In this document: positions 29,101 through 64,000 of the stretch, piece by piece
Layout of the letters: the number at the start of each line of letters is the position of its first letter
How positions within the stretch are numbered: the stretch's first letter is position 1
NCBI RefSeq assembly: GCF_964204865.1
Contig: NC_135264.1
Location: forward strand, 1,240,001 to 1,304,000
Length of the DNA: 64,000 nucleotides
Direction of reading: 5' to 3'
Source: Styela clava
Taxonomy: Eukaryota
Translations under genes and position numbers: made by a program
Notes under the pieces: generated by a model
Seen by the model: the letters and a program-made list of their open reading frames with translations, nothing else
Database searches by the model: none
Told to the model about the DNA's origin: nothing

Positions 29101-32100
29101 GGCGTCTTGTATCTCCGAAAGTTGAACAAGAAACTGAAGAGCAACCTTCATTTGAGACCAATCAAAACTTAAATCTACATATTCAAAACATAGGTGAACA
29201 AATATTTCCCGACGATCCAGATTCTTGTCGTGATTCCGCCTTCTATGGCTCCAGAGAAGATACTTCACCAGATATGCCTTCGTTACCCACCGTTACAATC
29301 GACTACTTCGTATCAACAGATACTTCTATCCAGCGTATGGATGGATCTTCTCCGGACCGGGACGGGTCTTTAATAATCGAGAAAGAAGATCTTGATTCGG
29401 ACAATGATCTTTCAATGACGCCTTCCATGTCAATAAGCAGTTTTCTTCCTTCTGAGACACAGTCTGTGAATATTCCCTTTTCGATGACCTCGAAATTTTC
29501 AACCTCACCAGAAACACATGTGACTGCTGCATCATCGCTCCCGGAATACAATTTTGCACAACATGAAGGTGGAATAAATTTACAAAACGTAACAAAGAAA
29601 AAAAGAAATAAAAAAATGTCTCGAAGAGCAAATTCAAAAACCGGAAATGAAACTAATAGAGTAGCTGCATCCGATGCGTCTCAAATCAAATCGAAGCAGA
29701 GGACAATCACGCGAAGCACCTCGACATCGAAAAGAAAATCAAGCCCTGTCAACCGTAAATGCATGCTATCATTAAGTCAAACTAATTCTCAAGTGCTGAA
29801 AATTAATGAAAAAGCCAGTGCTGGGCGTACTTCCGTTTCTCTCGCTTCTTCAAGACAATTACAATCAAGAAAAAGCAACTGCTCGTCCATGGTAAACTCG
29901 GATCACAAAATAACAGACATAAACAGAAAAATGAAGAAGAAAGTTCCAAAACAACACAAACCTAATACGCTGACATTCAAACCAGATGATGTAAAATTAC
30001 GGCCACCAACGAGACGAGGGAGGGATGCCACGAAGCGTAGATCATGGCCTCCAATGCTGTCTGATCAATCGTTCAAAAAAGTAGGCTTGAAACGATCTCT
30101 ATCTTTTCGCGACGGAATAAATAGGATCAACAGTTTGACCAATGGCTACAAAGACTTCGTCCCTCTGTCTCCCGAGAAAAGAGATATAAGTCGTCGCGCC
30201 CACAGTGAAGGTTCCGTTGCTTCTTCCCAACTCACAATTTTTAGACAAAGTAATAAAATTGGAAGACTTCTAGAAAGTAATAGGAGGCATACTGAAAACC
30301 GAATTACACCGAGAGGGACACTTAGAGATCGTCAACCAGGGGAAAAGTATGATAAGAAGGCTGCGAAAACTCAGAATTTAGCTTCTGCAAAGAAAAGCAC
30401 AAATGCGAGAAAAATACGCAAAAAAGATGACCAGGCTCAACGAAAGGCAAGCAGCTCAACTGAAAGTTTTGCTAAAGAAAACTTGTACAGTTCTGAACCA
30501 AGCCACGTTACAAAGATGTCTTCAAAAAGTTCCCGAAGCAGATCGTCGAGATTATATAGATCTTCTTGTTCTGAAGAAGGTTTACGTCGTCAACGAAATC
30601 CATCTTCAAGTCAGGACCGTTCACCAACTGTAAGATCTCGTATCACTTCCAACTCTAGCGCTCCAAGTACAAAAACTCCACCGAATACGCGGAAACCGTC
30701 TATTCCCCGAAAGTCGGCTCCAGATTTTATACAGCAAAATCGAATTAAGTCAACACGACAAAAACCCATTGGGGCCATCAGAGCGCTCGGTAGCAATCTA
30801 CAAAAAGCATCGGAATTGTCTAAATTGAGAAGAAAAATAAGGGCCCCAGAAATCAAGAATTATTCCTCTCGGAAAGCGCATACATTTGAAAAATCTTTGA
30901 AGAAGAATAAGAGCCCAGTAAAACCAAAAATATACAAGGCAATGCATAAGGTAAGGTCGGTTCGATAGTATTGTTTTGACGAAATCGTATTGCATCCACT
31001 GTTTGTTTCACTGTTTTATCATGTTTTGCTGGTGAAAAGTTGTAAGAAAAATCTGTCATCCCTGTTAGTATTTTCAAGTAATGTTTCCTCTCAAATGACC
31101 ATCTATCCGTTTGCAGTTGACAATTATAAAATTTTACAGTGCGTGCCGAGATCGTTAAAGCGTATAGTAACAGACGATATCACCGACCAGAAAAATTAAC
31201 TATAGAAAAGTAAATGAAGCTTTTAATACTCTGCAGTTTTTTATGACCTTTTAACTATTATAATCACTAGTTTAGTAGCATCGCAAATTGGTAACATAAA
31301 CTTGTGATGGGTCAGTGAACCGGAAATTGCTTCCGTTTCTACGATTTCCTTCCGTTAGGTATGGGTTAAAAAAGGGGATTTTGTATATCTATAATTCAAA
31401 CTCGGCCAAAAATGGTATGGTTAAAGATTTGAATGTCTCGTTGTTGAGTTTTTATGTCGTCATTTGTTTGCTCATGAGCATGCAGAAAGCTCTATACCTA
31501 TATTCTGTTGCATTGTGTTCATAGTCTTTATGATATGTGGTTGTTGAGTTAACAGCATGTCTGTCGATAGTTAGCAAGTCAGTCATTTTATCAACAGTTC
31601 TTACGATGAAGTTAATTTTTGAAGGTGCTTCTCGAGTTTTGAATGTGTAACGCTAAGGTAAAACTTGACGAAGTAGTCCTGTTGCTAAAACAATAGTTTT
31701 ATCGCAAAATTATTTAGGATATGTTACGTCGGGTGTTCTAACACTTGATATTGCAGTGTTCCTCCCCTCGAAAATTGTCCCAATATTACAATAGAAAATT
31801 TATTCATTTCACCTAACAAGATTTGAAAGTATGTAATCTGGAATACAGCAATTCGTTTCATTTTAACCTCGTTTTTATTTTATTTTAATCTATATTTGGG
31901 CTTTGCGCTCACGTTCGAACATGTACATTCGTTTTCTTAAGCATCAATATTTGATTAAATTAGCTTTGGGATTGCACCAGATGTGTTTCAATCGGATTCC
32001 GAATAAAGAGCTCATAGCACGCTATCGAGCGTGATTTATTAATGAAATACGACAACAAATCACCGCTCAAGATCGGTTAATATAATATACGACCGGGACT

Positions 32101-44100: not shown

Positions 44101-47100
44101 GAGAAATTTTACACCAGGTTTGAGATATCCGCGCACGCCCATTTTTTTGAATAACTTGCGCACTTTCGTGGCTCACACGATAGAATATCTCAAACTACAG
44201 AATTTGGTCTTCATCATTAACGTAGAAATATGCGGTTGGAGTATGTGCAAACAGAGTCCATGAGTCATGAGAATAGCCTATTAAAGAAGCACTAAGAATG
44301 TATTTATCGAATGCAGTTGGGTATCATGGACTTGTTCTGAACATTTCGAAATCCATGGTACATTATCTCAATTTATTAATACATTTAGGGGGACTATTAT
44401 TCGAGTTCAGATTTTGGGAAAGATTAGATATGCAGAATGTTTATAGACTAGTTGTTCAATGTAAGGCCGCATCATAATATGAAGTATATATTTTCTGAAT
44501 TGATCAATAGTAGCTTCTGGGGGCAACAATATATAGTTCGTTGGGGCTACTAATGTAATCGCGTAAATTTTTAATTCAATTAGGATCCTAATAATGCGAA
44601 ATAAAATCGCATACTTATTTGGAGTATCGAATTGAAAAATAACAATAATTTTGTATTTCTGCTTATAGAGAAGCTTATGGAAAGCTGGATATTGTCTAAG
44701 TGGCTCAGATAATGCGACATAATTTTTAGTTGTAGTCTGTGTCTGTTGATAACTAAAGCAAATCATGGGGTCACAATCAAGTAAAATCGAAGGTACATAA
44801 CCGGATCCGGATTGTGAGCTTTTGTAATTGTATCCAACTTCCATAGCCTCCGCCCAGGAAGCATCACCAACGGACCAAAATATAAATTTGTTTACTCATA
44901 TACAACTGGACTCCGAAGAACATATTCTCTTCGTTCCTCTCAAGGGAAAACTGAATTTGGAAGCCGACAGGCTACATTCTTTCACCGTAGACGATACTAG
45001 TCAGTACGGTAGTCAGTCGATTCCACTCAGCTGTCTAGAGGTTTTCCAAGTACGTCGTGTAGTCGTAGCAAATACGCCTGTTATACCTGTTGGCATATCT
45101 TGACTAGAAATTTGAAGGTTTCCATCGTGGTAGAGTCGGAATTATTTGAGATGGCTCAGCACTCTTATATTCGATCCTCAACTGGTCAGGACATCATGGC
45201 CAACGTGATAGTAAAATACTGTGGTAAGTACATTACAGAACTGTTGTTTTCAAGGGTGTCAAGGGTTTATGTGTGTAGGTGTGTCAGTGGATTTTGGGGG
45301 AAATCGGTTTCGAATTGTTTCCGCAATGTTCCCACTGTTACTGTTTCCCACGATACTCGGTGAGAGCATGTTTCGAGCTTTCAGGTGATAACCTTTTTAA
45401 ATATGACTAAATTTGCGCTAAAGCAATCTAACAAAAGTACACGGAATGTTGTTATGAACATCTGGCGAATGGGGAATACAGCCGGTTAGTTGGAAGTTTG
45501 TGTTTCTATTACATTTTTCTCATAAAATATACCAGCCGAAATTGTGATATATATGAACCATTGTCGAATTGCATTGATGTGATTCCGGGATGCAATAAAT
45601 TAACAGCGTGCACACAAACATATTCAACGTGAACTAAACTCTGTGCATTGCCTTAAAAATGTTTCCGCGACAGAACGGCGGAAATCTGTATTTCAATCAT
45701 CTCAATCATAAATGAAAACCACGAAGTCACGTTTCAACACATTATTATCTTTCGCCCTCTAACGGACGCTGACGGATTTTTTCGTGAATTTAATTCATTC
45801 CATTTACCATATTTCACACTATTAGGAGAAATTAGTTAACAAAGATGTTTTTCGCTCTATTCGCGCCAAATGTGTATAGCATTAATAAATATTTCAACAG
45901 ATCTATCTCATCGCTGGATATGCGTCGATTGCGTCGATATTTTATTTCCCCATATACGATACAGGGAAGTACAGAGTTAAATCTTGATTTGTGTATTCCG
46001 AGAAGACGCCTCTCATAAGAAGAAATCACGTTATTCATTCAAGCGTAGATTCATTTGAATTTGATCGGTTCAATTTTGTGGTTAATGTATAATAAAACAA
46101 AATTTATGTATAGTTCAGTGCATGGAATTTAATGTATAGTTTCGCGACGCTTGCTTTGTTGTTTCGAGAATCATGTGTGCTTTTTGGGCGTTTACTATAA
46201 CGTTGAAAGGTCACTTCTCCCGTTTCAAACTTTACTAACGAAAGTACTGTTGAATTGTAACGCCCAAGATTTCGTTTAGCCAGTGGAGAGTATGAATGGG
46301 GACCTAATGTATCGTATTGGCGTTATGATTTTTATAGCATAGCTGAAATCGCTCGCTTTTTTGGGAAATCCGCGTTAGGTTGGTTATTATTTTGGTAGGG
46401 GTGTTCAAAATGAATTCTTACGCAATCAAGATATTTCTTGGTACAATAGCACTATTACCATTTTTTTGACGATTTTCTGAAATATCAGTCTCTCTCGTAT
46501 AGTTGAATTGTCTTAAAACATTGTTTGGTCTTTAGAGCTGTGAGTCGTAAACGCAGCAAATGTATCTTTTATAGGTATTTATTGCAGAACATTTAAATAT
46601 GTAACACATTTCCATGTCAGTTCACTTACATGAGCTGCCTGTAGGCAATTTACTCGAAGAAATAAAAGAGCTTTATTATCCGCGCAGATATTTCGAGAAC
46701 ACTGCCGAACTATGTGTTTTGATTTTGCGTGTTCAACTGTTTCGAATTTCCACTACTCATTTATTTCATCTATTTAATAGTGAGAGAACGAAATGATGTT
46801 GTATTGTCGTATTTTATATCTCATTGAGAAGGAGCATATAGTTTTGAATAAGATACAAAGAGAAATCGCATAGATGATCCAAGATTCGACAGATAAAAAA
46901 AAACTTCAGTATTCAGTATAAATATTATTATATAACATTCCGCGGTCAAATTATGGCGGCTAGAAAAAATTTCACGAAAATTCAGTGTGCACGGGTTTTG
47001 CACAATGCGGCAAACTTATATACAGTAATCTTATTTTAAATACTTACGCGAATTAATTAAAACATACTCTCAGAAGTTTTATAATAATACCCATTTCTGC

Positions 47101-50100
47101 GATGCTATTTTTCGAATCTTTGCAGTTTTCGATTTAATAGGAGCAACAATTATTGTTTGTCAGACCAGGATTGCTCGGTAATTAATTCAATTGTCAGCAT
47201 TGTGTTTCAGGCAAACTAAAGAGTTCACGCACTGCAATAGGCATGTACCTATTTTAGTTCGGAAGTATGTAACGTGTTCTGTAGGTACATTGTGCGCTTG
47301 GGACTATAATAATATGCTTTCAAGTCTTGTTTGCTCTGGGTATCACAGTGTAAGAAATAAATTGGCTTGGATGTTGGTGGATGACATCGAGAAATCTTCT
47401 TGACCCACTTTTACTCGGAAAACCAAATGAGCTGAGCTCACAAGTGGTTAATTGTTATGTCAAAAATATAATAACGTCAAATAAAAAAACGTTTGAAGAA
47501 AATATCATTCATTCAATAATAATTTTCTTTCAATGTTTGATGATGAAATGTCCTTTAATTTCAGTCGAAGCACATGTTCGCTCTCACCCACGTAATATAT
47601 ATTTTGTCGCTGCAGCTATTCCAAATTGACTGTCGTTTAACATAGGTGGACATAAAAATTCCGCTTGTAAAATGATTGAGTGGTCACTAAGTATCACTTT
47701 TGTGTTTTTTAAATGTTTGCGGAATATATTATTATAAACACTGTTTAAAAGAGCACCGAATTAACATGAGGCCGAATGTATGTATAGCCGCACTACTATA
47801 TGTAGTGTTCGTTTGTTTCCAATAGCCCGCTGTAAACGATGAAAAATTTACTTCGCAATTTCAGTAAATCGAACAGAACTTCCAACATCTCGATAATACT
47901 GCTAGAAGGGAGAGAAAGAGACCGAGGGATATAAACCGGCTTCTGCTATTCGCGCTTAAGTACACACTACCCAATATAAAGTTAAGAACAGCTTAACTGG
48001 TGTCGATCCACTTCTTCGACGCCAAGTGGTGCCTGCTTTTATAAGGCCGATAAAAAGCTCCAGGACCGTTACATATTAGTATGGTTATTCAAGCGAACCT
48101 TCTGTGCGGCGTACACTGTTATTCGTTTTTTCAGATGAGGATAAAAAGTTTTGCGTGGATTTGGCATTCTATTTGGGAGCGACTTTTCGTTTAGGTCAAT
48201 CTGGTTTATTTTCAATGTCGCGAAATAGGATTTTGTGACATTTTCAAACTCGCAAGTTTTGCGTGGACGGTCACGTGGTTGTCTCGCTATTTTCATAATA
48301 GCAACTCTCAGGGCGCCATATCGATTTTTACCTTCAGAAGTTAAATAATGATACTGTAGAAAAAATTGTTTAATAATACAACTTTTTGTAATATTCAATA
48401 TGGAGTACCTCTTATCAATCGATATCGCCAGCTTTTTGTCCCTAATTCTTTACTACACTCCATACTTGGCGTTTTATAATTCCATATCACAATCCTGGCT
48501 GATGAGGCAGTTTACTCGGGAACTATGGACAAATTTCATTCAATTTTTTAAAGCGTGGTAGTGAATGTCAATAATTGTTCAGCAAGCAAAGAAGGAGATA
48601 ACCCTCTGCGAGTTTGTGAGAGAATAAAAAGAGAAAAAATTTGGAAAAACTGCTTTATGTTTCTTTTTCAAAAAGACATTACTAAAATGTGTTTTCGTAC
48701 CCGGCGTATTTTATCATCGTTTTCTTTTCGAGACGTGTAGCATTACTAAAATGACGATAGTTTACGTTTTGCGCCTAACTAACATATGAAGCGTGAAAGC
48801 TAGTTTTGCCTACGGGGCTTAGCGGACGACAGTGCCACGAGGCGTTATGGCGTTTCTTATAATAATATATCGTACCGGTATGATAGATTTCAGCAATAGT
48901 TTTAACAAATGCAATTGTAAGGCTTTTTACTGAGGAAATATGCAATTGAACAGTGAAAGGATTTTTTGATTGATGAACTCAGTGGTGTGATTGGACATGA
49001 ACTACAGATGAATCGGTTTACTTTCATTAAATACTCAGTTGCATTGTTGGTTTTGCATTTCTTGGCGTTGAAAGCCGTTTTGTTTAAGTTAGATGACTGG
49101 AAGAAACTTTCTTGTAACGTGATCTGGTCATTTATTGTTTCTTTAGGTTAGACGTAATGTTGATGCCGAAGGGCCATTTAGTGGCCATTTATCAATCACT
49201 TTTTGAAGACGGGGTTTGTGTAGCACAAAAAACAGTTCGCGGACCTCATGAGTATATTACCATAGGTAGTGGAGGAGCGCCTATACTCAATTTACACGTG
49301 GTAAAAGCTATGCAGTCACTGACTTCAAAGGGTGTTGTTAGACAAACATTTTGTTGGAGACATTACTACTGGACATTGACTGATTCTGGAATACAGTACC
49401 TTCGTGACTTTTTGCACCTTCCACCAGAAATTATACCCAATACTTTGAAACGTGGTGTTAGGGCGCCAACTGCTAGGTTAGGTGCAGGGAGAGGTCGAAC
49501 GCTACAGAAACAGTCGTCTGACGTTGCGGAACAAAGTAGGAACCAATATCGCGGAAAAGTGGATTCTCCCAGACCAGCATTTGGGCGTGGGAGAGATAAA
49601 GTCGCAGATGCCGGTGCGGGCTCAAGCGCCTCGTTTAGTTTCTATTCACGTCAATCGGGCATGGAATTTCGCGGTGGGTACAGAAGAGAGGAGCAAATGG
49701 AACAAGCAAACGCGGTAAACGGATATGCCGGATACAATGGGAACTGGCGTAGCGAAGGCGGTGAAGCGACAAAGTATACTAAGGAGAGAGAGGGATATAA
49801 AAGCGAATTACGTGATAATACCAAGCGCAATGAACCGTTCGGCCAGAAACGTGAAAACTTCGCAAAGAGAAGTTATCCGGAAGACGACAGACGGAAATAC
49901 ACGAGCACCGCAAGTCAAGATGGAAACAATGTAGACCAAAATTGGAGGCAGAAATCGCAAGATATCAGCTCAGAAACGAGAGATGTCAATCAAGTGACAT
50001 CGCCTGAAGAAATTGTTCAACCGACAACGTCGAACGAGAGCGGATCAACTTTCCTTAAAGTTTCCGAAACGAAAACACATTCGAGGAGTATTCACACAGG

Positions 50101-53100
50101 AGTAGGTGAAGAGGATTACCTTAGTCAAACCACTGTGGTGCAGTATTCAACATCAGTGCGTCAGGAATATACTCAGGAAGAAAAACAAGAATCTGGAAGG
50201 AGGGAGGAAGAGGAGGAGGAAGAAGAAGATATTGATATGTGGCGATCAAGAAGAGTAACTTCGGAAAATCCCGATTACAATGATAGCATTGAATCGAAAA
50301 TTGATGAAGGGAGAGGTGGAATACATTTTAAATTTAGGATTATTATTTCTGTTTCGCAACCTCTAGTGTCATTAGTTATACAAGCTTAATCAGAAAAGGT
50401 TGATTAGCACTATATGAATATATCAGTCGCACTAAACTTCACGTGGTACTTGCGAGAACATTTTAATTCTCTTGAAATTAAGGGTTTAGACGCTATGTAG
50501 TGAACTTTCGTTTCAAAATTGGCTACGCCCTTATTGAAACGTTTATTACTGCTTAGTGCGATGTGTGCATATTATTATAGAAAATGGTACTGGTCGATAG
50601 TTTATAGCCGATTTGCGATTTGTCAAAGCAGTCTTCATGGCTCTTCAGTAAATAACATTTCCTATGCAAACACCGTAAACACGTGTCAGGATAAGAACGC
50701 CACTAGTGCTCACTTTTAATCTTAATGTCCTACCACGTCATGTAAATGGTTTGTGTGTGGGAACATGGAACGTTCAATTTTTCAGTGTTGATTCAAACGT
50801 TAGCATAATCGCCGCGAGTGTTCCGTATATTACCTTTATAAGCAATGCTGTGGTTTGGTTGTCGTAAAATTCTTTTCGGGATTGGATGGATTTATAGTTT
50901 GTATATTTTGAAATTCTTAAAGCTGATTTTGGCTTTACTAAGAATTGAATTTATTTTGCTATGGGAATGAACCGAAATGGCTCGAGTTTAACGTTTCAAT
51001 GATGCCTACGGCATGTGCGTGTGGTCGATGTCAAAATCACTTTAATATGGATAGAAGTTGTCGTAAATCATATTTATAATATAACGCGACTGCTTCCCAT
51101 GGTTGGGTTTCTATTTCTTCAAAGTATCCACGATAAAAAGCTACTAATTTGCTGTCGTTTTTTGTAGTGTCATTATTGAAGAAACAAGTATAAGATTTCT
51201 ACTTATACGTGTCAAAACTTCATATTATTGTTCGATCACAACGGGCATTAATAACAAGCATTATCCTATATAAGATATCCCAGGCTAATCTCAATATGTT
51301 GAATTCATTGATATTTCGCCACAGGGTTCTGTAGGCTTGTGCGTTAATGAAACTCGATATCGACCTAGCTGAATTAGCAAGGTATAATATGAATGTTGTA
51401 TCAACACATAATAGAATGCTATTCCATGTATATGTATGAGTGACTCGAGACTAAAGAATTCCATTCGGGTGTATCGTAGCGTTCGAATCTCTTTATTTCG
51501 CATCGAAAAAACGATTAACTAGCAATTTTGAATGAGTTCATTTCAGTGCGATTTCATTTTTCAACCAACTTGTATTTTTTGGCTTTGAACTGATGACAAA
51601 GTCAACACTGTATAACACTTTGAATTGGACATGGAATTTGACGAACTTGATATAATTCATAGTTTCAACAAATTAATTTTTATTTCAGATGAACGCGACA
51701 AAGTACAGAAAAAGACATTTACAAAATGGATAAACAAGCATTTAGTCAAGGTATGTGTATATTTTTTAGATACTTTTGACATCGCAGTACATGAGCATAA
51801 ATTGGTTCAGTCGAATCTAATAAGAAATATTTTCAGTGTTATAGTTCCATCTTCGACTATAAGTATTTAAAATGACTGCATGGGATTGCGCAGCGACATT
51901 TATGGGAGGGATATAGTAGGGTAAACCTTGCATTTTATGCTCAAGTTTTAGAATTCCTAATAACCAACACCAACAACAAACGACCCGTATTATCGTAAAT
52001 TACCAGCTCTTTTATTATCTCGTTGAAGCCACTTTGTGAGCATAAATGTGTTGTAGACGTGAACAACTTTCCTCGGGCTATTGTATTACTTTATTTTTTT
52101 TTTAATGACTTACCTACCAACTGGTGTGTCAATGGTGGCTTTGCTTGGTGATTAAAATCCGCTGTATGGATCCATGTTTCGTAGGAGAAGAATACTTATT
52201 ATTGACTCACTTATGGACCAGCCATGAACGCATGATGACATTCGCGCCTGACCTTGATTGCTCATATATATCATTGCGGGTATACTCTTCTTTAAGGCGG
52301 CTATTTCATAGGACTTCTTTTCCTCAGCTACCTTCTGATAATGTGAAGACAAAATCGAAATCCCCGTTTTACGCAAGCCCTATTATTTGTAATTAACACA
52401 GTGCCTTTAGTGATTACTCGTTAATTGCCGATTCCGATGCATCGGTCGTACGTATTCGAAAACCGTTATCATGACACCAGCTACCAAATAACCCATAACC
52501 TCTTTTGTACTTCTGGATAAAAACGATTTTCGAAGTTCCCAGTTATGTGCAGTGCAATATTACATTATATTAATTTATTACAGACCCGAAGACAAGTGGA
52601 TAATTTATATGAAGATTTGAGAGATGGCCACAACTTGATCGCATTACTGGAAGTTTTATCTGGCGAAACCTTGGTGAGATTATTTTCGTTTTATGTAATC
52701 AGTTTAGTCGCTCAAACAAGCGTAAGTTTTGTATGGAATACTCTTATAGAGAATAGAATTAAATTTCCCGCCAAAACCATATTCGTTGCTTTGGATTATT
52801 GTTTGTTATTTCACTTCTGTATTAGGACAGAAATAATACGTTTTGATAAGATTCTCTCGTTTCTGCTTTTGTTGAAGGCATATAATTTTGTTGGAGTCCC
52901 AATTATTTTTTTGCGAAGCAGCGTGTTGTCGACTTTCCCATGGTTATAGATCTTCGCGTGGTCTTCGAAAAATCCAGCAAGTGACAACGTTTACTTTTAG
53001 AAATGGAAATTTTCATTAAGATGCCGATTTTGGACTTGAATATAGTTTTCATGAAATCGCGTGACAAAATATTGACGACTACTTCAGTCATTTACATTCT

Positions 53101-56100
53101 TTCAAATCTGCTTTCTACTTGATGAGTTTTAATTCATATTGAAAATTACCATCAGAATTTCAGTGAATGATTTCAATATTTTGACTATATAGGTTAACTT
53201 AAATAAATAACTGTTTGTCTGTTTGTTTCAATATTTCTTATTGGAATATTTTTTTCTCATATCCATTTAGTTTTCAATATCAGTTGAGGTCTCGTATGAT
53301 ATGGCAATTTGCAAAGAATGCCATCGCCCCACTTACGAAATTTGCCGCCAGAAATGCGCAGGACTGCATTTCTCTAATGATTTATTTAAATCAGTGAGTC
53401 GCCTGACAGTCTTGGGTTTCGTCTGTTTTACCTACTTTTGATTTGCTATGACGATTTGAAAATGATCCAGTGAAAGTTGAGCTATTACATGATTTAACAC
53501 ATAGCTATGATAATTGTGCGTGCGTGTGTGTGGCCCCTTTTACGCATGTTTTGTTTTGAACATGAAGCGTACTCAATTTGAAATTCAAGGTCTCGTTCTT
53601 GCGTGGTATGATGCCAGTGTGGTGGTTTGCGTAGGCGTGAATGTCAATTTCATCATAGGCGCGGTAATACCAAACCTTAATCCCGTCTACTAGAAATGCC
53701 AGGTCGTCAAAATAGGAAACCCTATATTTATCTAGTTGTTTTATTTAAAACCGATGGAATTAAATTCAAATTGTATTATGATAAATTGTATTATAATAAC
53801 ATTGTCAAACAGTATCACTCATGAGCAAAAATTAACATCATGCTTAAAATGGGTCGTTCATCCAATTTCGTAACCTAAACGAGTTTATCGCTACAAACCT
53901 TTCTTTCTGATATGCGTACAATTCATACACATCTAAGATTATCCTTACTAATACAAAAATTCCATTTCAAAGATTTTTAGCTTTTCTTTGGCTCTTTCTT
54001 TACTTTATTTTTCTTTATTTTTCATAATCCTTTTCCTCTTTTCTCTTTCTATCTACAAAGCCGCGCGAAGGAGACTACATGAATCAAATGCGTTTGGTAA
54101 GTCAACGAAACTACGCGGCATTATACCTGTGCAATAATATTAGACTAATTGTGCAGAAAGATGCCTTTATTCCTAATGCCTTCACTCATCTACTTTTCGT
54201 TTTCTATATTATACTTGACACTTGACTGGATCTTCTTGTTTGATATCATTTGCTCAGGGTAACTGTTGTCCAGGTCGATTAAATGGTTATAAATTACCAA
54301 TAGAAAAATGCTATAAAATTTTGTCAGACCAGAATTAAATGTAGATATCAAGTTTTAAACGAGGTACGATATATGTATAGTCATGTAAACTCTGTTACTT
54401 ATCGATATGTTTAATTTCAAATTAACGCGCATTTTTTAAGTGAAATGTTTATTTTTAGCCGAGAGAAAAGGGTCGAATGAGATTTCACAGACTTCAAAAT
54501 GTGCAGATAGCTTTAGACTATTTGAAGAAACGAAAGGTAAATTGCATTTTTCTTTAAGCACATACATTTTTGGGTAATTTTTTGGACTATACGTGATCTG
54601 GATAAATTTCCGAATTTCATATTTCAGCTTCGTCTTGTCAATATAAGAAATGACGACATAACAGATGGAAATCCGAAACTCACACTCGGACTTGTGTGGA
54701 CAATCATTCTTCATTTCCAGGCAAGTTATGTGACGTCATCTTACCTTCGGTCCATCTATGACTGCTGATATAATCGTCTTTTGTTATTTATTTGTATTAT
54801 CTGTAACTTTAATTTGTTGCTATTATATTAAAACAATTAATTTTCCTTTCAATTAGATTGAGGACATAGCCGTTGAAGGCGAAGATGATCTTTCTGCAAA
54901 ACAAGCCTTGTTATTGTGGGCTCAACGAAATATGGAAGGATACGACGATATCAGGGTCACCAATTTTACGTCTTCGTGGAGAGACGGAAAAGTTTTTAAT
55001 GCAATTTTACACAGGAATAGGTATTTTTCGTTTTTTTTTTGTATTAAAGAATGAAAATTTCATTTTTATATATTTCATTTTTTATTTTTCCAGACCTGAC
55101 CTCATTGACATGGATCAAGTACGTAAGTCAGACAACAAATCGAATCTAGAAAATGCGTTTTCAGCGCTCGAGAAGGAAGTTGCAGTGACAAGATTGCTGG
55201 ACCCAGAAGGTAGAGTACTTCAGCAAAGATTTATGAATGAAACCCAGCATTTACTTTTTCACCAACGCACGATAAGAGTTCGGTTTCAGCATGATTATAG
55301 ATAGTCGCCGATGTTATTTATATTCATATATTTTTAAAATTCCGATCTGATGTGTCATTTTGTTTATTTCAGCCTCGCCCTACCAATTGTCTCGTTTTGC
55401 ATTTTTGCTTACGAAATACTTTATAAGGTTAGTCAAGGTCATGTACGGAAATCTCTTATGTTTTTCGTATTTGTATACAGATGTTGATGTCGACAAACCA
55501 GACGAGAGATCGTTGATTACGTACGTTTCATCGTTGTACGACGCCTTTCCAAAAGTTCCTCCATTCCCGATTTCAATCACAGTCGAAGTATGTAGAGATA
55601 TTATGATTTTACTGATCTATTTTTTGACATCAATTCTAGAAAATAATAATAATAAAACCTACCAATACAGGGTTACTAGCAAGTTTTTATTTCTTCATGG
55701 ATATTCAATGCTGACCTTGTTGAACTTGTGACATACCAAAACCTGGTGTACTTAGGAATTGCGAATTATTTTTCAGGAATGGCAATTCACTTGGGAAGAA
55801 TATCGAATTCTTGTGACATCAATTCTAGAATGGATTCAGAAACAAATTGTCATTCTACGAAGACGTGAAGGCATACCATGTCAAACAGTGACAGAAGCCA
55901 AAAATTTAATTCACGAAATAAAACTTTTCCAAGAGAACGAGCTAGCTAGAAAAGAGGTGAGAACATCTGGCAATGAAGTATATTATATGTATATCGTTCG
56001 TGACTGTTGTTTGTTAAGTTGTTTGTTGATCATATTTGCTATATGAACATGAACTATGATTCAATATACATGTTATTTTAAAAAGGGTAAATATGCTTTC

Positions 56101-59100
56101 AATATCATCATGCCTCTAATCATACTTTATATCATCATTATCGCTGTTTATTTAGGCGGACAAGAATCTTGTAAGCCCAAAATATTGCGACCTGGAACAA
56201 ATGTCGCAAAAATCATTGGGACGATTTGAAATTCCCGCCGGATATGAACCAGCAAAAGTTGAAGCGGCATGGCAAGAACTGATGGCCGCAAATGATGAAA
56301 GAGAAGGTGTCCTTACAGCTGAATACAGAAGGTACGTCGAACATTTTATTGAATTAGAATTTGTTGGTAAAATTTATTTTATTTTTTATTTTTATTTTTT
56401 TAGATTGGAAAAACTTCATAATCTTGTACTAAAAATCACAAGCGAAGCGAGCGAATGCCGCACAAAACTGGAAGGAGCCGAAAAACTTATTAAAATCGTA
56501 AGTTAACTGGTTAAATATTGACTTTGTTCAATTTTATTGATTATTATTGAATCAACGATTGAGTAAATTGTTCAGCAAACGAGGATTGGAAATAATTTTC
56601 TAGATAGTAACTTTTTTTGCTCTAGAGTAGACATTACTCAATTTTACGTTGTTCTAGATTGAAGCAGAAGGCGATGATTCCGACCAAATGCAAAAACAAG
56701 TTAATGCATTGCTTGGCGACAGCGAAAAAGAAATCCGAGTTATGTTTGTTGACGTACAAACTCTCAAAGATGCCGAATATCATCAAGCAGATGACATGTA
56801 CAAAACGTAAGTTTTGGTGTGTTTATATGAGATTTTAGAGTCAATGTCGATTAATCGCATTTTATGTTTTTTTTTAAATTAGAAAATGATGAAATAAATA
56901 ACAGTTGGTAATATTCTCCATTTGAACTTTTGAATTGGCCCCGACTTGGAAATAATAGGCAATGTAATCCAATGTACGGGTACATCATTTTTCATTTTTT
57001 TCTAAATTTTAGAGTCTTTTTGCTTCACGAAAAGTGGGTCGCACTACGTTCAACCTACACCACTGCACTCAAGGACGCACCGAATGTACGTTCAGCAATT
57101 TTAGCTCGTCTCAGACCCAAACTCCAAGACACAAAAGAATATATTTCTCTTCAAGGTGCTCTAAGATGGGTGGCTGACAAAACGGTAATTTTGTTTTTCT
57201 ATATTTCCGTATATCTCATTATTCTCATGACGTAGTATCGTTTGAATAACATCGTCGTTTTTAAACAGAGGGAAACAGAATCATTTCCACTGGGAGATGA
57301 TCTACCAAAAGTTGAAAACCAGTTGGCTGTGTTCAAAGCATTAGAAGACGAAGTTGATAAATTCAATGCTGACGTTAGAGAGTGTCAGAAAGCAAAGGTA
57401 AATTGTCGCGAAATCATTATTGTTGTAACTGAAGTACGTTTGTGGGAATTTTTATTGAAACTAAATACAAATATATTCTCTTTTTGCAGGATGCTTTTGA
57501 TAAAGGAAGTGAAGATTGTAAGAGATATTGTCAAGATTTGTCACAACTTGAAGTCAACTATTCACTTCTGCAGGTATGCATGGTTTCGGATATTATGATT
57601 GAACTATTGTACAAATGGAAATGTGTTATAATGTATGTTTTATATTGTTAAATAGAATGCCGTGGAGATTCGTGAAGGTCAAATTTCTTCTCTGCTCAAG
57701 TTCATACGTGAAGCAACACAACATCTTATGTGGCTCAATGAAATAGAAGACAACGAAATAAACAGGGATTTTACGCAATATACATCTGACGTTGAACCTC
57801 TCGAGAAACAATTATCTGTACGTAAATTTATGTTTGTTCAACTTTTATATCTAGTAACTTAGTGATGATGTCATATGTTTTATTACGTCATACAGAGAAT
57901 GAAATCGGATGTCCAATCACACGATACTTCATTCAAATCTACCATTCACGACGGGGAACGATTAGTCCACGAAAACCACCCTGCAAGAAATACAGTTCAG
58001 GCTTACCTCACTCAACTAAACAATCAATGGGAATGGATACAGAGTTTAGGATATTGTCTACAGCAACATATACTGCAATTGAACCAGTACCAACAGGTAT
58101 GAGACGGTTTAAACCAGTTTTATTGAAATGGTCAGATGTTACCAAGACATTCTTGGTAATTGGGAGTGAAACGTTTTAGTCATTTTTTTTTATATTATCT
58201 ATTCACGTCGAGGAACGAAATCAATAGATTTCTGTATTTGTTTAGTTTCACACCGATTGCGGAAAAGCCGAGACATTTTTGCGTGATCGCGAATCGGACT
58301 TGGATGAAAAAATGCGTGAAATATCTCCTGATACTGAGCCTGATCGTGCAGAGCATATTTTCCGTGACATATTCGTAAGATGATTTTAATTTATATTTTT
58401 TCAAACGATTTATTTCTAGTTTTTATTATTTATAGTACTAGAAAATACAATTCTATCATATTATTATTTATTACTTAATTTCGCACAATCAACTATTCCA
58501 TATTTTATGAACAAACAATCAAAATTTATATCTTTTCATTTATTTACCACAGTTTGAATTCTCGGTAAGTCAGCTTGTCGAATGCAGAGTGCTTATCTTC
58601 TTCACGTGTGTTTATTCTTGTTTTTCAACATTATTTTCAATGTTAATTATTTATTTGTCTCAGTGTTCTTTTACTTTTAGTTGATGTTTTTATTTTAGCT
58701 CAGCTACCTATATGTCCCTTTTAAATATTTTGAATTAAAATATTATCTTACTGATTAATTTGAAATAAAAGTAGTTGGATTTTCTTAATCTGATTCTTTA
58801 GTTTAGTCTAGAGTTTATCTATGATCTTATCGTCCTTGGATAGAATGAATTTGCTGTATTCGTTGTTTGTGGTTCTTGTAAAACAATCTTGTAAGAAATT
58901 GTATTTGAATGGCCTTACATTCCTGAATTTCTTGCGATATATTTTAAATTTAAATTTACTAACATGTAAAAAAATATGAAAACTTGTCTTTTTTACTCAA
59001 ATTTTTGAAAAATATGTTTTGCATATTGCGCAATTTGAGTAATCTATTTAGGTTTTCTCAATCAATTTAATTTTTCATTAGTAGATGTAATAGGTGTCAA

Positions 59101-62100
59101 AATTATTGAGATGTCGATTTCTAATTTTTCAAGTCAGCTTACTTACATTTAGTTTTAGCGTCTTTTCTTTATTAAATTATGTTAAAATGCCACAATAAAG
59201 AGGCTGTATTGAACACATGCATCTATATCGCCTTTTTCTTTCACTTTTTGAATTAACATTGCGCACTGAATTCAAGTTATCAATAATTATTCATCTTCAT
59301 TTCTGTTATCAGTTTTTTTTTCCGTTTTTCATTTTGGATGATTTTGTTTTGCGTTAAGCTGTAAGTTGAAATGTATTATCAGTGGCGATTTGTAACAACT
59401 GGCAATGTAAGTTGTGTATTTTGAATAAGTTTATTCGAAATTGCTTGAAACTATGATTTGTACGTATCTATACTTAAAACTAAAAGTTTATTTGTCATCT
59501 CTGTATACTGATGTGAATGAATGAACAACTGCAGCATTAAATCGAAAATTGTGACTTTTGTATGATAAAAAAAAACGTAGCAAAAATGAAATTTTTCTCG
59601 CTAACAACTAGATTATATTGAAGAAAACACTTGCTTCTGCATGATCTTTCTCCCATATCGTTTTTGTTTGTTTGGAAGTATTTTCATCTCTCAAACATGC
59701 TGTTAAGTGCATGATCTTAAAAGCTTTTATGAAAATGTTAAAGACTAAAAATAAATTATTTTGAAATATTTTCCCTTGCAGCAAATAAAAGAAGATTTGG
59801 AAAAATTTAAACCAACTGTAACAAACTTGATTGCTCGCAGCAAAGATATACCGTGCGTAGAAGAAAGACCAAACCCGGTTATCAAAGATTCTAAATCGAC
59901 TGTACAAGCTTTGTGTAGTTATAAGCAAATGAATGTAAGAAATGGAACTTTGTGATATTATTTCTTTTTTGTTTTGTTCGTCACGACTTTTTATTGTTTT
60001 ATTTCAGCTTTCTATCGCTAAGAGTGAAGAATGTGCTTTGGTAGACAAACCTCAACCGACGAGATGGGTCGTTATCAACTCCGTTCAACAACAAGGAGAA
60101 GCTCCGTCGGCAATTTTTGTCATACCGCCTCCTAGTGCTAAATCTATCTCTCGCGCCCAGGCTCTAGAACGAGATTATCTGGCGTTTTTGGAATTGTGGC
60201 GTGAAAGACATGCCAGAGTACAGCTATTAGTGGCCATTAACAACCTTCAAAGAAGTATCGGATACGTATCATCGTGGACGGTAGAATCGGTGAGTCAAAA
60301 TATTCGAATAAAATTTGAGCATAGTATTAGTGATGAAAGGTCTGTAATTTTATTACTGTCTTTTTATTCGTTATAGTATCGTCTTTTAAGTCCTATTGAA
60401 CGGGATCAAGCATTGAGGAATTTGAAAGACGGTCTCAAAGGAATTGAAGATACGGAATCAAATGATCCAACCTTGACTGTCAAAATCGCCTCTCTACGCG
60501 TCGAAGTTCAAAGATGTCTAAAACTTGCTGAATCTCTTTCTAAACAAATGGACCAGGGTAAGCAGTTGTGCTAAATATCTTCGTATACGACATTAAACAA
60601 ACCTAAAACTGAATTTGAATTGTTTTATAGATGACAAGGACGAAGAGCAATGCCGTACTTACATTTCACGATTAAACGTAATTCTTCGTCGACTCAACAC
60701 TATTGATGGAGTTGTTTCTGTTCGAGTGAAAACAGCTCTTCCAAGAGACGTCGCTAGTGTGCAACATGTCATCAATGACCACGAGGTAAAGTGATTTTAC
60801 TATTATAATCCGATAGTTTCTGTGGATGATTATGTGTGATTCGATTTTTGACGTTTATGTACTTTATCTTCAGAGCTCAGTGGTTGAACTCAAAACAATC
60901 CAACCTCAGTACGCGGAAGTACGTGAAGGTTCAAAACAAATCATGGAAAGAGAGGATTGTTCTGCTCCATCAAAGGAGGAACTCGGCAATCAACTTGAAG
61001 TAGTTGAGAAAAAATGGGATCGAACATGGAATATTTCTACTCTGTACTTTGACAAGTAAAATAGTTTTTTTTTTATTTGATCAACAGCTGATAAAAACTA
61101 GTTCATGAGAATAATATATCATGTTTTATCCACAGGTTGAAAATGGTCTACGTTGTTGTGCAATCGACAAAAGAAGCGCAAAATATTGTTTCAGGCGTCG
61201 AAACGAAGATTGAAGAAAATAAAGAAATCCCGAAAGATTCGGATAGCTTGAGAAAACAACAAATCATTTACCAGGTTTGTGGAAAGGGTGGCTTTCAATT
61301 TTTTTACTTAATCTATTGCTTCATACCGTGCCTACGGTTTTCCTGAGAAATGGAGAACTCAAGATTAATTGTTATTTAAAATCATTGTTCAATAATAGTA
61401 ACTATGAGTTTCTAGTCTATTTAAAATAGTGTCGTAATACCCAAGATATTTTGTGATCTAATTTTTCGATTATTATTACGTTCTATTTTAACTTGTTTTA
61501 TGTAATGTAGACTGCCAATACAAAGACTCATGTAAGTACTGAAATAAAGTACAAACAACACCACATCACCATTTTCATAGCATCATATTGAGTCTCCTTC
61601 TTCATTTTGCCATTATATTTATATGGGTGACAAAATTATCATTTTTGATGAACTTTCATATTGCGTTAATATGGTTGACATTAAAATTTTTAATTTTACT
61701 GTGCTTTCATTCATTTAGAAAAAAAAAATAATTTTGATAATGAACCATTTATTCTTAGTAGGTTCTGTCTTCGTTTGGCTGGTTAAAAACATTTTGACCT
61801 GCGAAAGTCATCTAAATATAACATTATATATAAGTTTGCATGTGGTGACATGGTCTTGGAATTTCAGAAATATTCATCCTTTAGTACATATCATTCAATG
61901 ATCTGAGTTTTTATTCGATATAGATTACATAATTCAAACAAAGGAAACCATGGGCTTTATTACCTTTAATGTCCTAATGATATTTTGTTGCATTATAAAA
62001 ACAGTGTTGTTTCTAAGCATTAAAACTCGAAGCGACGTTCAAAAATTTTGATGTCAATATGTGTGACTTTTGAGATTAAAACTCCATTAATATGATTGCC

Positions 62101-64000
62101 ACACAGTTTTTGCTACAGACTCCAATAATAAGAAATGACATATTTTGACTAGTGTTAAATTTGTTAATTCTCAATTCAAGGAAATGCGAGACACTCTTGA
62201 AAAGAATCACCCCCTTATCGTAAATCTGCAACGAGATGCCCAAAAGGCGAATGAAATTGGCACCAAACTTGTGAAGGTAGCAAATACCCAAGATAATAAA
62301 GTTACCGAAGACGTGGACGTTCAGAAATATACTGCTGATGTCAAGGACGTCGTAGACAGATGGCAAGTTTGCAAAGTCTTCGTCGATGAAAGGTGATTAT
62401 GGTTTATCTAGTTGTCTAATCCGTACCATGAATCAAATTTGCGTTTAGACGACTTTTTTTCAGTAGTCTACTTTTAATTTTTCAGTCCAATGTAGGTTTA
62501 AAGGGTTTTGAACTTTTTTCATACAATGTTTTACTATACTTTCTTTTTACTTTTTTAAGGTTGACAAAATTCAGCGATTTATTGCCGAAAGCACAGCAAG
62601 GTATGTAAACTTTTTATTTAAAAAAAATACTTGCGAACTCGATAAAGCCATAATTTGAATTTAATTTTCCAGGCGAAGCGGATGAACAGCGAGCTAAATC
62701 TCTAATCGACCGTCTAAATAAATTGCTAGCCACCCTTGACAGCATTTCGACTAGCCAAGAGGCTCAAATGGCAGTTTGGCTGCCACGATCGGTACCGGCA
62801 CTCCAGCAAGCCGAAGATAGTCAAGGAGTATGAATCTTTTTTTTTGATATTTGTGGTTTTTATGAGTTTTCACGACATATGACACTGCTAAAACGAAATG
62901 CTAGGTTCTGACTGTGCAACATTATTTTCCAGACTGTGGTGAAACGAGTCGAAGATTTGAAACCCGAATACGACTCTGCTCAAACTGTCGTAGTTAACTT
63001 CATCAACGAGGAAACCTCTGGCTTGGCACCGAGCATACCGTTCTTACGTGACACACTTCACAAAGTCCAGGAGAAGTGGGCGATTGTATGGCTCATGACG
63101 CACGTTTACTTCGAAAAGTACATATTTTGTAATATATAATGCATAAAGTGATTTGTGATTAATTTATGAATAATGATTTATAGTTAGTTTATCATTATTG
63201 ATTCTAACATTGTAAATATATTAATGACGTCATATATTTACGCCTTTTAGGATCAAAGGACTCCTTTACACACAAAGTGCGATAATCGAATGTGAGAAGG
63301 CGGTATCATCATACGAAAAAATAATTTCAGAAAGATCTCATTCCACGACGGATGTCGATGCGCTACGTAAAAGAAATGACATCTTCCAGGTTTGCTGCAT
63401 TTTACAAGTTATATAAAGAGCCATGTCAAGCAATGTGATTTTTAAAACAGTTTTAGTAATTTTTTCCTATACTTCAATACAATCTCCCTTTTTCTCGTAT
63501 AGAAATTGGCTGCTGACATTCCAGTACACGACTCAAATTTCGATGCTTTGTCAAAAAATCTGATTTCTACTCGCGAAGTTTCTCATCAATTGCCTCCTAC
63601 TATTGCCGATAAATGCAACAGCGATTTGGAAGCTTATTCTAACGATATTGAAGATTTACAACGTCGATGGGAAGAAGCAAAATCGAAACTTACAATGTTG
63701 GCTGATCAAGTGAAAATCCAGCTGCCGAAAATGGAAAAAGGTATTTGGTTTAAAATTTTTACATGAAATTATAATTTCAACTTTGGGAAATGGGATTCTG
63801 TATTGAGAACATCAGAACTGCTATTTATTTAAAGCACTTTGCACGTTACTAAGTATCGTTTTGTGCAAACTCTGCGTGCAAGCACAAACACTCGCTTAAA
63901 TATTGTGATTGAACATAAATTTACCAATAATTTTTTATTTATTAAATATTTTTCTTCTTTAGCTGCTGCTCAAGAACGTTTATTGTCGGATATTCTTTCT
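17015..64000 (+). CDS. Plectin/dystonin/MACF1-family (spectra)plakin gene, 5' part, with multiple alternative first exons; runs off the window
   Basis: Spliced GT-AG exons give one continuous frame with [21 protein letters not shown] (CH1), CH2, plakin spectrin repeats and SH3. An S10 first exon is a plectin hallmark. Other first exons resemble dystonin/MACF1, so paralog identity is not resolved. Confidence 0.95.
17526..17629 (+). CDS. TM-isoform exon A2
   Basis: attgtag|A...GAG|gttagc, 104 nt, phase 2 to 1; [34 protein letters not shown], no stops. Confidence 0.75.
19394..19458 (+). CDS. TM-isoform exon A3
   Basis: ttatttcag|AC...CAG|gtaaat, 65 nt, phase 1 to 0; (D)[21 protein letters not shown]. 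Confidence 0.78.
19643..19774 (+). CDS. TM-isoform exon A4
   Basis: atgcag|GCT...CAG|gttcgt, 132 nt, phase 0 to 0, purine-rich; [44 protein letters not shown]. In phase with the linker exon at 36376. Confidence 0.72.
21918..22445. repeat. Complex local direct repeats
   Basis: ~60-bp GACACCGGTACCGGCACCAGTACCAGTATCGTACTTACG... at ~21918 and ~22247. ~45-bp TAATTGATCACAGAACA... at ~22024 and ~22086. A further degenerate copy runs to ~22445. Confidence 0.85.
22700..22735. repeat. (AAGAAC/AAC)n microsatellite
   Basis: agaacaagaacaagaacaacaagaacaacaac seen directly. Confidence 0.8.
24472..24783 (+). CDS. Alternative N-terminal exon B (acidic, Ser/Thr/Pro-rich, 104 codons)
   Basis: AGCATGG start, disordered-protein composition, AAG|gtaatt donor at phase 0. 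Compatible with the acceptor at 36376, or with aag|ATG at 27351. Confidence 0.7.
27351..30950 (+). CDS. Giant (3600 nt, 1200 codons) low-complexity alternative N-terminal exon C
   Basis: 1205-codon ORF with a strong donor AAG|gtaagg at 30951, exactly on a codon boundary just before the ORF stop. Phase 0 fits the linker exon at 36376. N-half acidic, C-half Ser/Arg/Lys-rich; no recognisable folded domain. Confidence 0.8.
34963..35001 (+). CDS. Short alternative first coding exon D ([13 protein letters not shown])
   Basis: ACTATGG Kozak context, 13 codons, CAG|gtaaat donor at phase 0, 1.4 kb upstream of the phase-0 linker exon. Confidence 0.6.
36376..36520 (+). CDS. Linker exon homologous to the plectin-1c / dystonin-2 / MACF1 N-terminal exon
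   Basis: ttgcag|AGA...CTG|gtgagt, phase 0 to 1; [23 protein letters not shown]...[13 protein letters not shown]. Splicing to 51689 gives [13 protein letters not shown], matching the vertebrate 'TLPWNL...[15 protein letters not shown]' motif. Confidence 0.93.
37068..37221. mobile_element. Short hAT-type MITE
   Basis: TIR CAGTGGTGGGATTCAA / TTGAATCCCACCATTG, internal CCGGTT motifs, degenerate TSD GGTGTATC/GATGTATT. Confidence 0.82.
41055..41160 (+). CDS. Alternative first coding exon E (plectin-1f / dystonin-1-like)
   Basis: ATCATGG start; [35 protein letters not shown]; GAG|gtatgt, phase 1. The junction EEQEAMDAY...FRDERDK parallels the recalled dystonin-1 EEQEYLQAY...YKDERDK. Confidence 0.85.
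41428..41938 (+). mobile_element. hAT internal-deletion derivative retaining the transposase N-terminus
   Basis: TIR CAGTGGCGTAGCA / TGCTACGCCACTG, perfect 8-bp TSD ACAATACG, internal [16 protein letters not shown] stub. Confidence 0.9.
45151..45223 (+). CDS. Alternative first coding exon F (possibly plectin-1a-like)
   Basis: GAGATGG start; [24 protein letters not shown]; G|gtaagt donor at phase 1, fitting the common exon. Confidence 0.72.
49157..50315 (+). CDS. PLEC: Alternative first coding exon G: S10 (plectin/RPS10) domain plus charged disordered extension
   Basis: MLMPK...[15 protein letters not shown]...[55 protein letters not shown] is the RPS10/plectin S10 domain. Donor GAG|gtggaa at 50316 is weak but phase 1, matching the common exon. 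The symbol reflects plectin isoform-1 architecture only. Confidence 0.88.
51689..54720 (+). CDS. Common exons encoding CH1 of the actin-binding domain
   Basis: Exons 51689-51750 (62 nt), 52584-52673 (90), 54459-54536 (78), 54628-54720 (93): [14 protein letters not shown]; [20 protein letters not shown]; [22 protein letters not shown]; [29 protein letters not shown]. Confidence 0.97.
54061..54096 (+). CDS. 36-nt cassette microexon in CH1 (plectin exon 3-alpha equivalent)
   Basis: ~80-nt pyrimidine tract, then aag|CCG...TTG|gtaagt; [12 protein letters not shown], phase 0-0. Confidence 0.85.
54857..55587 (+). CDS. Common exons encoding CH2
   Basis: Exons 54857-55020, 55094-55209, 55481-55587: [11 protein letters not shown]...[25 protein letters not shown]...NLENAF...[30 protein letters not shown]. 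Confidence 0.97.
55777..60557 (+). CDS. Plakin domain, approximately SR1-SR6 with the inserted SH3
   Basis: Phase-consistent exons 55777-55956, 56156-56331, 56404-56497, 56658-56806, 57013-57184, 57269-57397, 57490-57573, 57656-57817, 57896-58096, 58246-58374, 59782-59934, 60008-60289, 60377-60557. Motifs [27 protein letters not shown]...[12 protein letters not shown]. Confidence 0.93.
58553..58564 (+). CDS. Predicted 12-nt microexon (FEFS)
   Basis: ttttcatttatttaccacag|TTTGAATTCTCG|gtaagt, phase 0-0, inside a 1.4 kb intron among ~100-nt introns. Confidence 0.72.
60631..62600 (+). CDS. Plakin SR7-SR8 module, copy 1
   Basis: Exons 60631-60785 (155 nt), 60874-61055 (182), 61136-61274 (139), 62181-62392 (212), 62560-62600 (41). 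Confidence 0.9.
61511..61531 (+). CDS. Predicted 21-nt microexon (TANTKTH)
   Basis: ttgttttatgtaatgtag|ACTGCCAATACAAAGACTCAT|gtaagt, phase 0-0, in an enlarged 0.9 kb intron. Confidence 0.65.
62673..63740 (+). CDS. Plakin SR7-SR8 module, copy 2
   Basis: Exons 62673-62827 (155 nt), 62933-63117 (185), 63251-63389 (139), 63503-63740 (238). Same intron phases and similar motifs as copy 1. Confidence 0.88.
63963..64000 (+). CDS. Next core exon (truncated by the window end)
   Basis: ttcttctttag|CT, phase 1; (A)[12 protein letters not shown]. Confidence 0.8.
   Translation, partial: MLLKNVYCRIFF

Follow-up and report, generated by a model that had tools for sequence, protein, structure and literature searches.

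Gene model at the locus

The analysed window, to which plain position numbers refer, is a 64,000-nucleotide stretch of Styela clava DNA (G000:C19:1240001-1304000, i.e., NC_135264.1 positions 1,240,001-1,304,000). A cellulose synthase domain (PF03552) and a GH6 domain (PF01341), both above the cut-off, lie 2 kb apart on the same strand elsewhere in the genome (L012, G000:C9:16177457-16180164); this combination, which we take to be a tunicate marker, placed the host in Tunicata. A plectin-like gene starts within the window and runs past its end. Upstream of the array described below it comprises the following features:

49157..50315, plus strand: first exon with the Plectin/S10 domain (PF03501, E 1.6e-32); its phase-1 donor fits the exon at 51689
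51689..55587, plus strand: actin-binding domain with its two CH domains, encoded in seven exons (tblastn identity to lizard plectin P0072, 56-86%)
55777..60557, plus strand: N-terminal plakin-domain exons up to spectrin repeat SR6, with the SH3 domain in SR5, assigned by profile scores and PF17902

Modelled with 45 exons, the stretch from S10 to SR9 reads through 2648 codons without a stop; the link from the S10 first exon to exon 2 belongs to the model and was not seen in reads. The separate profiles of the upstream plakin domain covered SR4 to SR6 and gave 94 bits for SR4, 114 bits for SR5 plus SH3 and 27 bits for SR6. The plakin SH3 inserted in SR5 was above the PF17902 cut-off, and at least one plakin-type SH3 above the cut-off is present genome-wide (one was found). 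SR6, SR7, SR8 and SR9 follow in that order, with SR7-SR8 present five times, thus exceeding the canonical limit of nine spectrin repeats with one SR7-SR8 pair. If SR1 to SR3 are present, the plakin domain totals 17 repeats.

The last SR9 exon is spliced directly to the first plakin-repeat exon in contigs of runs X5 and X6. The C-terminal plakin repeats (PF00681) form about five motif blocks, after which a stop occurs at L003 ~2806; the tail is short and Ser/Arg rich, as in vertebrate plectin. No central coiled-coil rod exon was found in the 4.2-kb intron after SR9, where all plus-strand frames were of 81 codons or fewer, and for this reason the gene is called plectin-like and not plectin proper. 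We consider it likely that this is a tunicate plectin/spectraplakin gene in whose message SR6 is followed by five tandem SR7-SR8 pairs and then by one SR9, with the extra repeats likely acting as a spacer.

Several further features of the locus were noted. Low-depth contigs of X1, X5 and X6 cover L009 8645-9772, in the intron after SR9, and could represent a retained intron, a short 3' end or pre-mRNA. Beyond the plectin-type stop and 3' end at L003 ~2806, more plakin-repeat exons and spectrin, EF-hand and GAS2 exons lie on the same strand, a layout that fits either a dystonin-like locus or a PLEC plus MACF1CTL pair. Within the spectrin-repeat half, a 437-codon frame at L005 ~4893 (G000:C19 ~1347893) has a Met-Gly Cys-rich start motif and is a possible internal start of a MACF1CTL-like, lipid-anchored product. 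A 36-nt microexon flanked by AG and GT (54061-54096) lies between CH1 exons; the lizard plectin isoforms P0072 and P0064 have an insert of 12 residues that matches it in place, length and ends, and it may be an ancient alternative exon. The contigs of X4 and X7 are consistent in length with its being left out. The CH region also contains a GC-AG intron donor at 54720, and a possible alternative first exon with a Met-Gly myristoylation-type start and a phase-1 donor was spotted by eye at ~44765-44792. Farther upstream, a 1206-codon open frame (27348-30965, plus strand) had no Pfam match.

Exon structure of the SR7-SR8 array

The exons of the array that fall in the window are as follows:

60631..60785, plus strand: 155-nt exon A of copy 1, encoding the first half of SR7, phase 1-0
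60874..61055, plus strand: 182-nt exon B of copy 1, encoding the second half of SR7, phase 0-2; PF21097 E 0.007, below the cut-off
61136..61274, plus strand: 139-nt exon C of copy 1, encoding helix A of SR8, phase 2-0
62181..62392, plus strand: 212-nt exon D of copy 1, encoding helices B-C of SR8, phase 0-2
62560..62600, plus strand: 41-nt adaptor exon between copies 1 and 2, phase 2-1; a 41-nt exon stands at the same place in contig L010
62673..62827, plus strand: 155-nt exon A of copy 2, phase 1-0
62933..63117, plus strand: 185-nt exon B of copy 2, phase 0-2
63251..63389, plus strand: 139-nt exon C of copy 2, phase 2-0
63503..63740, plus strand: copy 2 exon D with an adaptor-like tail fused to it, 238 nt, phase 0-1
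63963..64000, plus strand: beginning of the 155-nt exon A of copy 3, a phase-1 exon running past the window end

All these exons have AG/GT ends and follow the phase series 1,0,2,0,(2),1. A sequence-only reading had proposed a tandem duplication here, with exon sizes of 155/182/139/(212+41) and 155/185/139/238, repeated phases and matching motifs, and all of these were present in the sequence. The intron difference that it noted between the copies was likewise confirmed, copy 1 having 212 plus 41 nt where copy 2 has a fused 238-nt exon. Its possible third copy from 63963 proved real, and two more lie beyond the window, giving five in total. Copies 3 to 5 occupy G000:C19:1303963-1307474 (1303963-1308273 with SR9), with exon sizes of 155/182/142/235, 155/185/142/223 and 155/182/139/194, after which come three exons, of 166, 183 and 99 nt.

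Exon A measures 155 nt in all five copies, and the internal phases are 0, 2 and 0 in every one. The copies are 19-30% identical to each other, yet all 10 pairs align end to end (E <= 1e-12); copies 1 and 2 gave a BLASTP E of 9e-20 at 24% identity. Ahead of SR9, copy 5 closes in phase 2, at the position where copy 1 has its extra intron, and it does so in both species with the array (see below). A proline near the end was found at six of eight copy junctions. The structural model of copy 2 exon D is a two-helix hairpin (pLDDT 88) whose helix continues through this proline, so that a proline hinge at the junctions, which we had considered, finds no support in the model.

Identity of the copies as SR7-SR8

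Homologs were collected with the SH3 exon, which retrieved 62 proteins, 24 of them of at least 700 residues. The names among the 20 looked up were vertebrate MACF1, dystonin, plectin and desmoplakin, plus one amphioxus and one spider protein. SR profiles were built from 16 of the 24 long homologs (vertebrate and amphioxus plakins) scoring at least 78 bits on the profile of the copies, a selection that is not fully independent since it used the copies' own profile. The limits of the repeats were drawn by eye on lizard plectin, with the PDB matches as a guide. The outgroups are vertebrate heavy, the named ones including one partial amphioxus and one truncated spider protein.

The nontunicate SR7-8 profile produced five full-length matches on the gene model, of 134, 76, 73, 49 and 102 bits, in agreement with the earlier assignment of the duplicated unit to SR7-SR8. 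The SR9 profile produced one match, located after the array and weak (15 bits alone, 70 bits as SR8-9). Taken in isolation, the copies matched the SR7-8 profile along its full length with 56-141 bits, and none exceeded 1.3 bits on SR9; leave-one-out scores on the SR7-8 profile were 115-166. Among the controls, 500 shuffles reached no more than 7.3 bits and the best of 139 rod windows reached 30. For copy 2, the values were 83.5 bits on canonical SR7-8 versus 0.2 on SR9; thus, this copy does not fit SR9 or the rod repeats better, an outcome that would have spoken against duplication. Copies 1 and 5 were the closest to canonical SR7-8, as expected for the units that keep contact with SR6 and SR9.

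Comparison with known structures pointed the same way: the best PDB matches of the exon-D profile were plectin 5J1G and 5J1I (residues 162-231, E 7e-7), a result repeated with two species. Structure 5J1G is plectin SR7-8. The other structure, 5J1I, covers plectin SR7-9 (PMC11203604). The exon A and exon B profiles had no significant PDB match, no repeat exon was above the cut-off in Pfam searches of single exons, and Foldseek with the exon-D hairpin, which is too small to be informative, returned no match at E <= 0.001.

Helical similarity could in principle make ordinary spectraplakin rod repeats, or a diverged SR9, pass for SR7-8. Rod windows do reach 30-36 bits on the SR profiles, and the exon A and B profiles alone gave weak PDB matches or none; against this stand the scores of the isolated copies on SR7-8 and SR9 and the exact repetition of the intron positions, which together leave such a misreading a very slim chance.

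Among the 24 long homologs, all labelled as nontunicate or unnamed, 22 had a match to the SR7-8 module and none had two full modules; the remaining 2 end too early to show a match. In the snake gene model P0017, a near-identical duplicate of part of SR8 occurs at residues ~500-720, probably as an artefact of assembly or annotation. No tunicate ortholog was named among the 20 homologs looked up, a weak negative, the other protein searches having covered sequences of up to 2000 residues.

Splicing of the copies

On whether the copies are included together, as the sequence-only reading requires, or are mutually exclusive, seven spliced-type runs from three studies and one unspliced run were brought to bear. 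The runs were presumed to be RNA, and their contigs skip GT-AG introns. From SR6 to copy 3 exon A, the complete joint table (11 rows, 4 runs) contained joints of consecutive exons only; its 11 rows correspond to 10 introns and one shifted duplicate, so that 10-11 introns were joined between the last SR6 exon and copy 3 exon A. In X2, X4 and X7, which come from two studies, a single contig spans SR6 to copy 3 without any skipping joint, and the 41-nt adaptor exon was joined on both sides in all seven spliced-type runs. Farther downstream, joints between copies 3 and 4, 4 and 5, and 5 and SR9 were found, among the joints listed, in X1, X5 and X6, and none in X10. In X6, part of copy 1 exon D was uncovered, as a gap in cover. 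One X7 contig is 6788 nt long, a length that agrees to within 3 nt with the total for exon 2 through the final SR9 exon; this suggests a single, unbranched route across the five copies, with branching at either end.

The joints of consecutive exons and the single contigs over copies 1 to 3 indicate that the copies are co-included and not mutually exclusive. Copies 1 to 4 are of phase 1-1 and could be skipped in frame, as would suit a set of alternative or mutually exclusive cassettes with one or a few copies in each protein. Such an arrangement is largely refuted for the major isoforms by the strictly consecutive joints from SR6 to copy 3 and by the joints seen from copy 3 to 4, 4 to 5 and 5 to SR9, and we regard it as highly improbable. 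Minor skipping isoforms are possible, given that contigs drop rare variants.

Second species and age of the array

A search with exon B retrieved two sequences, P0097 and P0098, both specific to copy 2: they were identical to copy 2 exon B at 45 of 56 and 37 of 59 positions, respectively, versus only 10-16 identical positions with the other copies. P0098 led to two metagenome contigs, L010 and L011, 99.9% alike. L010 contains 23 exons without a stop and five copies, every exon A being of 155 nt and the phases being those of the window gene; it has the 41-nt adaptor after copy 1 and the phase-2 end after copy 5. The part of the contig analysed stops short of the SR9 and rod region of this species. 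The SH3 exon is only 32% identical between L010 and the window gene, and the L010 animal is thus a distant relative, presumably also a tunicate to judge from the array that both genes share.

Identity between the species at the same position was 32, 38, 23, 31 and 29% for copies 1 to 5, compared to 27-47% for unduplicated plakin exons, and reached 60% for copy 2 exon B. The best BLAST match across species was the copy at the same position for four of the five copies, the exception being copy 3, whose best match was copy 5, by 2 bits. In the tree, copies 1, 2 and 4 paired across species with support of 99/96, 100/98 and 99/98, respectively, whereas copies 3 and 5 were not firmly paired (59/54 for copy 3; copy 5 unsettled). 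Copies 2 to 5 grouped apart from copy 1 (98/94). Monophyly of all copies had support of only 88/78 and 84/77, and a clade of copies 2 to 4, such as a single intron loss would predict (93/87 with one species), was not recovered with two, although it was not rejected (AU P = 0.19). Species-specific amplification, with the five copies of the window gene as one clade, was rejected (AU P = 3e-61).

The occurrence of the same five copies, phases and adaptor in a distant species indicates that the array is ancient, and copy number and copy identity appear to have stayed fixed after it formed. This bears out the earlier proposal of an old, strongly divergent duplication (19-30% identity between copies). 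The same proposal called the array lineage specific; the lineage is a deep one, since the distant second species has all five copies.

An assembly artefact, or recent or dead duplicates, might be suspected from the near-identical partial duplicate of the same region in P0017. The low identity between the copies, the lack of stops, splicing in three studies and the array of the second species make this explanation scarcely credible. We are nearly certain that the architecture is real, expressed as a spliced message and ancient.

Proposed origin of the array

Because copy 5 ends in phase 2 at the site of the extra intron of copy 1, the native block is taken as phase 1-2, and the 41-nt exon is best read as an adaptor that makes the block 1-1. 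The symmetric, phase 1-1 amplification put forward from the sequence thus stands for copies 1 to 4, but the native block is not symmetric and owes its symmetry to the adaptor. The hydrophobic spacing of the adaptor continues like the start of canonical SR9, and its end resembles SR6 before SR7, over 13 residues, too short a stretch to test.

In the proposed scheme, the block of four exons, entered in phase 1 and left in phase 2, would first have been duplicated together with the 41-nt adaptor exon. This event would have joined the beginning of the SR9 exon to a donor of phase 1 and given rise to copies 1 and 5 and to a symmetric unit. Further duplication of this unit would then have filled in copies 2 to 4. 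These inner copies lack the adaptor intron, plausibly through a single loss.

Discussion

The gene shares with vertebrate plectin (PLEC) the S10 first exon, two CH domains, the SH3-bearing plakin domain, the SR7-SR8-SR9 order and the plakin repeats, and differs from it in having five SR7-8 pairs instead of one and in that no coiled-coil rod exon was found. Spectrin-family rods lengthen by intragenic tandem duplication of exon modules with repeated intron phases, and surprise at the array is limited by how common repeat expansion is in such rods; the unit amplified here is distinct in being a two-repeat pair that needs an adaptor exon. In dystonin/BPAG1 and MACF1b, a long spectrin rod of single generic repeats follows the plakin repeats. 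Unlike in these spectraplakins, it is here a plakin-specific pair that is amplified, inside the plakin domain. The plakin repeats come directly after the plakin domain in MACF1b as well (PMC5979291), and a rodless splice form of plectin exists (PMC11774597). MACF1CTL adjoins PLEC (PMC8782857), which may be compared with the spectrin, EF-hand and GAS2 exons downstream here.

The plakin domain is described as having up to nine repeats (PMC9145010; 10.1101/681072). Ciona PLEC and MACF1CTL are given as uncertain in the supplement of PMC8782857, where the Ciona gene ids 113474048 and 100175356 appear, and the excerpt of PMC7397655 mentions a Ciona plectin ortholog without its architecture. Extra SR7-8 pairs in any plakin were not described in the literature searched, which did not extend to subscription papers, supplementary figures or database domain annotations, so that prior notice is possible.

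As to function, a spectrin repeat is ~5 nm long. The eight extra three-helix repeats, ~950 residues, would lengthen the distance from the actin-binding head to the plakin-repeat tail by ~40 nm, and the array would form a spectrin-type, probably nondimerising spacer in a protein that has no coiled-coil rod of the vertebrate type. SR7-8 is described as a linear, fairly rigid arm (PMC3726778; PMC11203604), and spectrin repeats are described as spacers (PMC5979291); the coiled-coil rod of vertebrate plectin also dimerises (PMC11774597). A long coiled coil follows SR9 in lamprey P0014 and lizard P0013, and none does in the partial amphioxus P0003. The rigid arm, the precedent for spacers and the lack of a rod here make a spacer role the best guess, a prediction that we hold with slightly better than even confidence.

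The array might instead be maintained because its copies act as separate modules that bind partners or sense force, and not mainly for its length. Such modules would be in keeping with the positional identity conserved across distant species (23-38%, near the 27-47% of unduplicated plakin exons), with the particular conservation of copy 2 exon B and with the interaction of an SR8 deletion with mechanotransduction mutants in Caenorhabditis elegans (10.1101/681072). However, positional identity also follows from an old duplication without homogenisation, and the two roles are compatible with each other; we consider the modular role unlikely as the main one and retain the spacer as our working prediction.

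More speculatively, tunicates, with the five-copy SR7-SR8 array, and vertebrates, with a dimerising rod exon, may have lengthened a rodless chordate plectin ancestor independently, and tunicate plectin would then be a monomeric, unfoldable-spring version with a 17-repeat plakin domain throughout the subphylum. We put this forward tentatively, the odds being somewhat against it.

Plakin domains of up to nine repeats have been described from worms to humans, and eight more repeats break that rule. Their number, fixed across distant members of the sister group of vertebrates, marks SR7-SR8 as a self-contained, stackable unit, and, if the proposed origin holds, the array clearly illustrates how an adaptor exon can render an asymmetric block of exons duplicable. 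The array may further account for the listing of tunicate plakin genes as uncertain in identity (PMC8782857, supplement). Finally, the array offers a natural test of the purpose of the plectin rod, i.e., length versus dimerisation.
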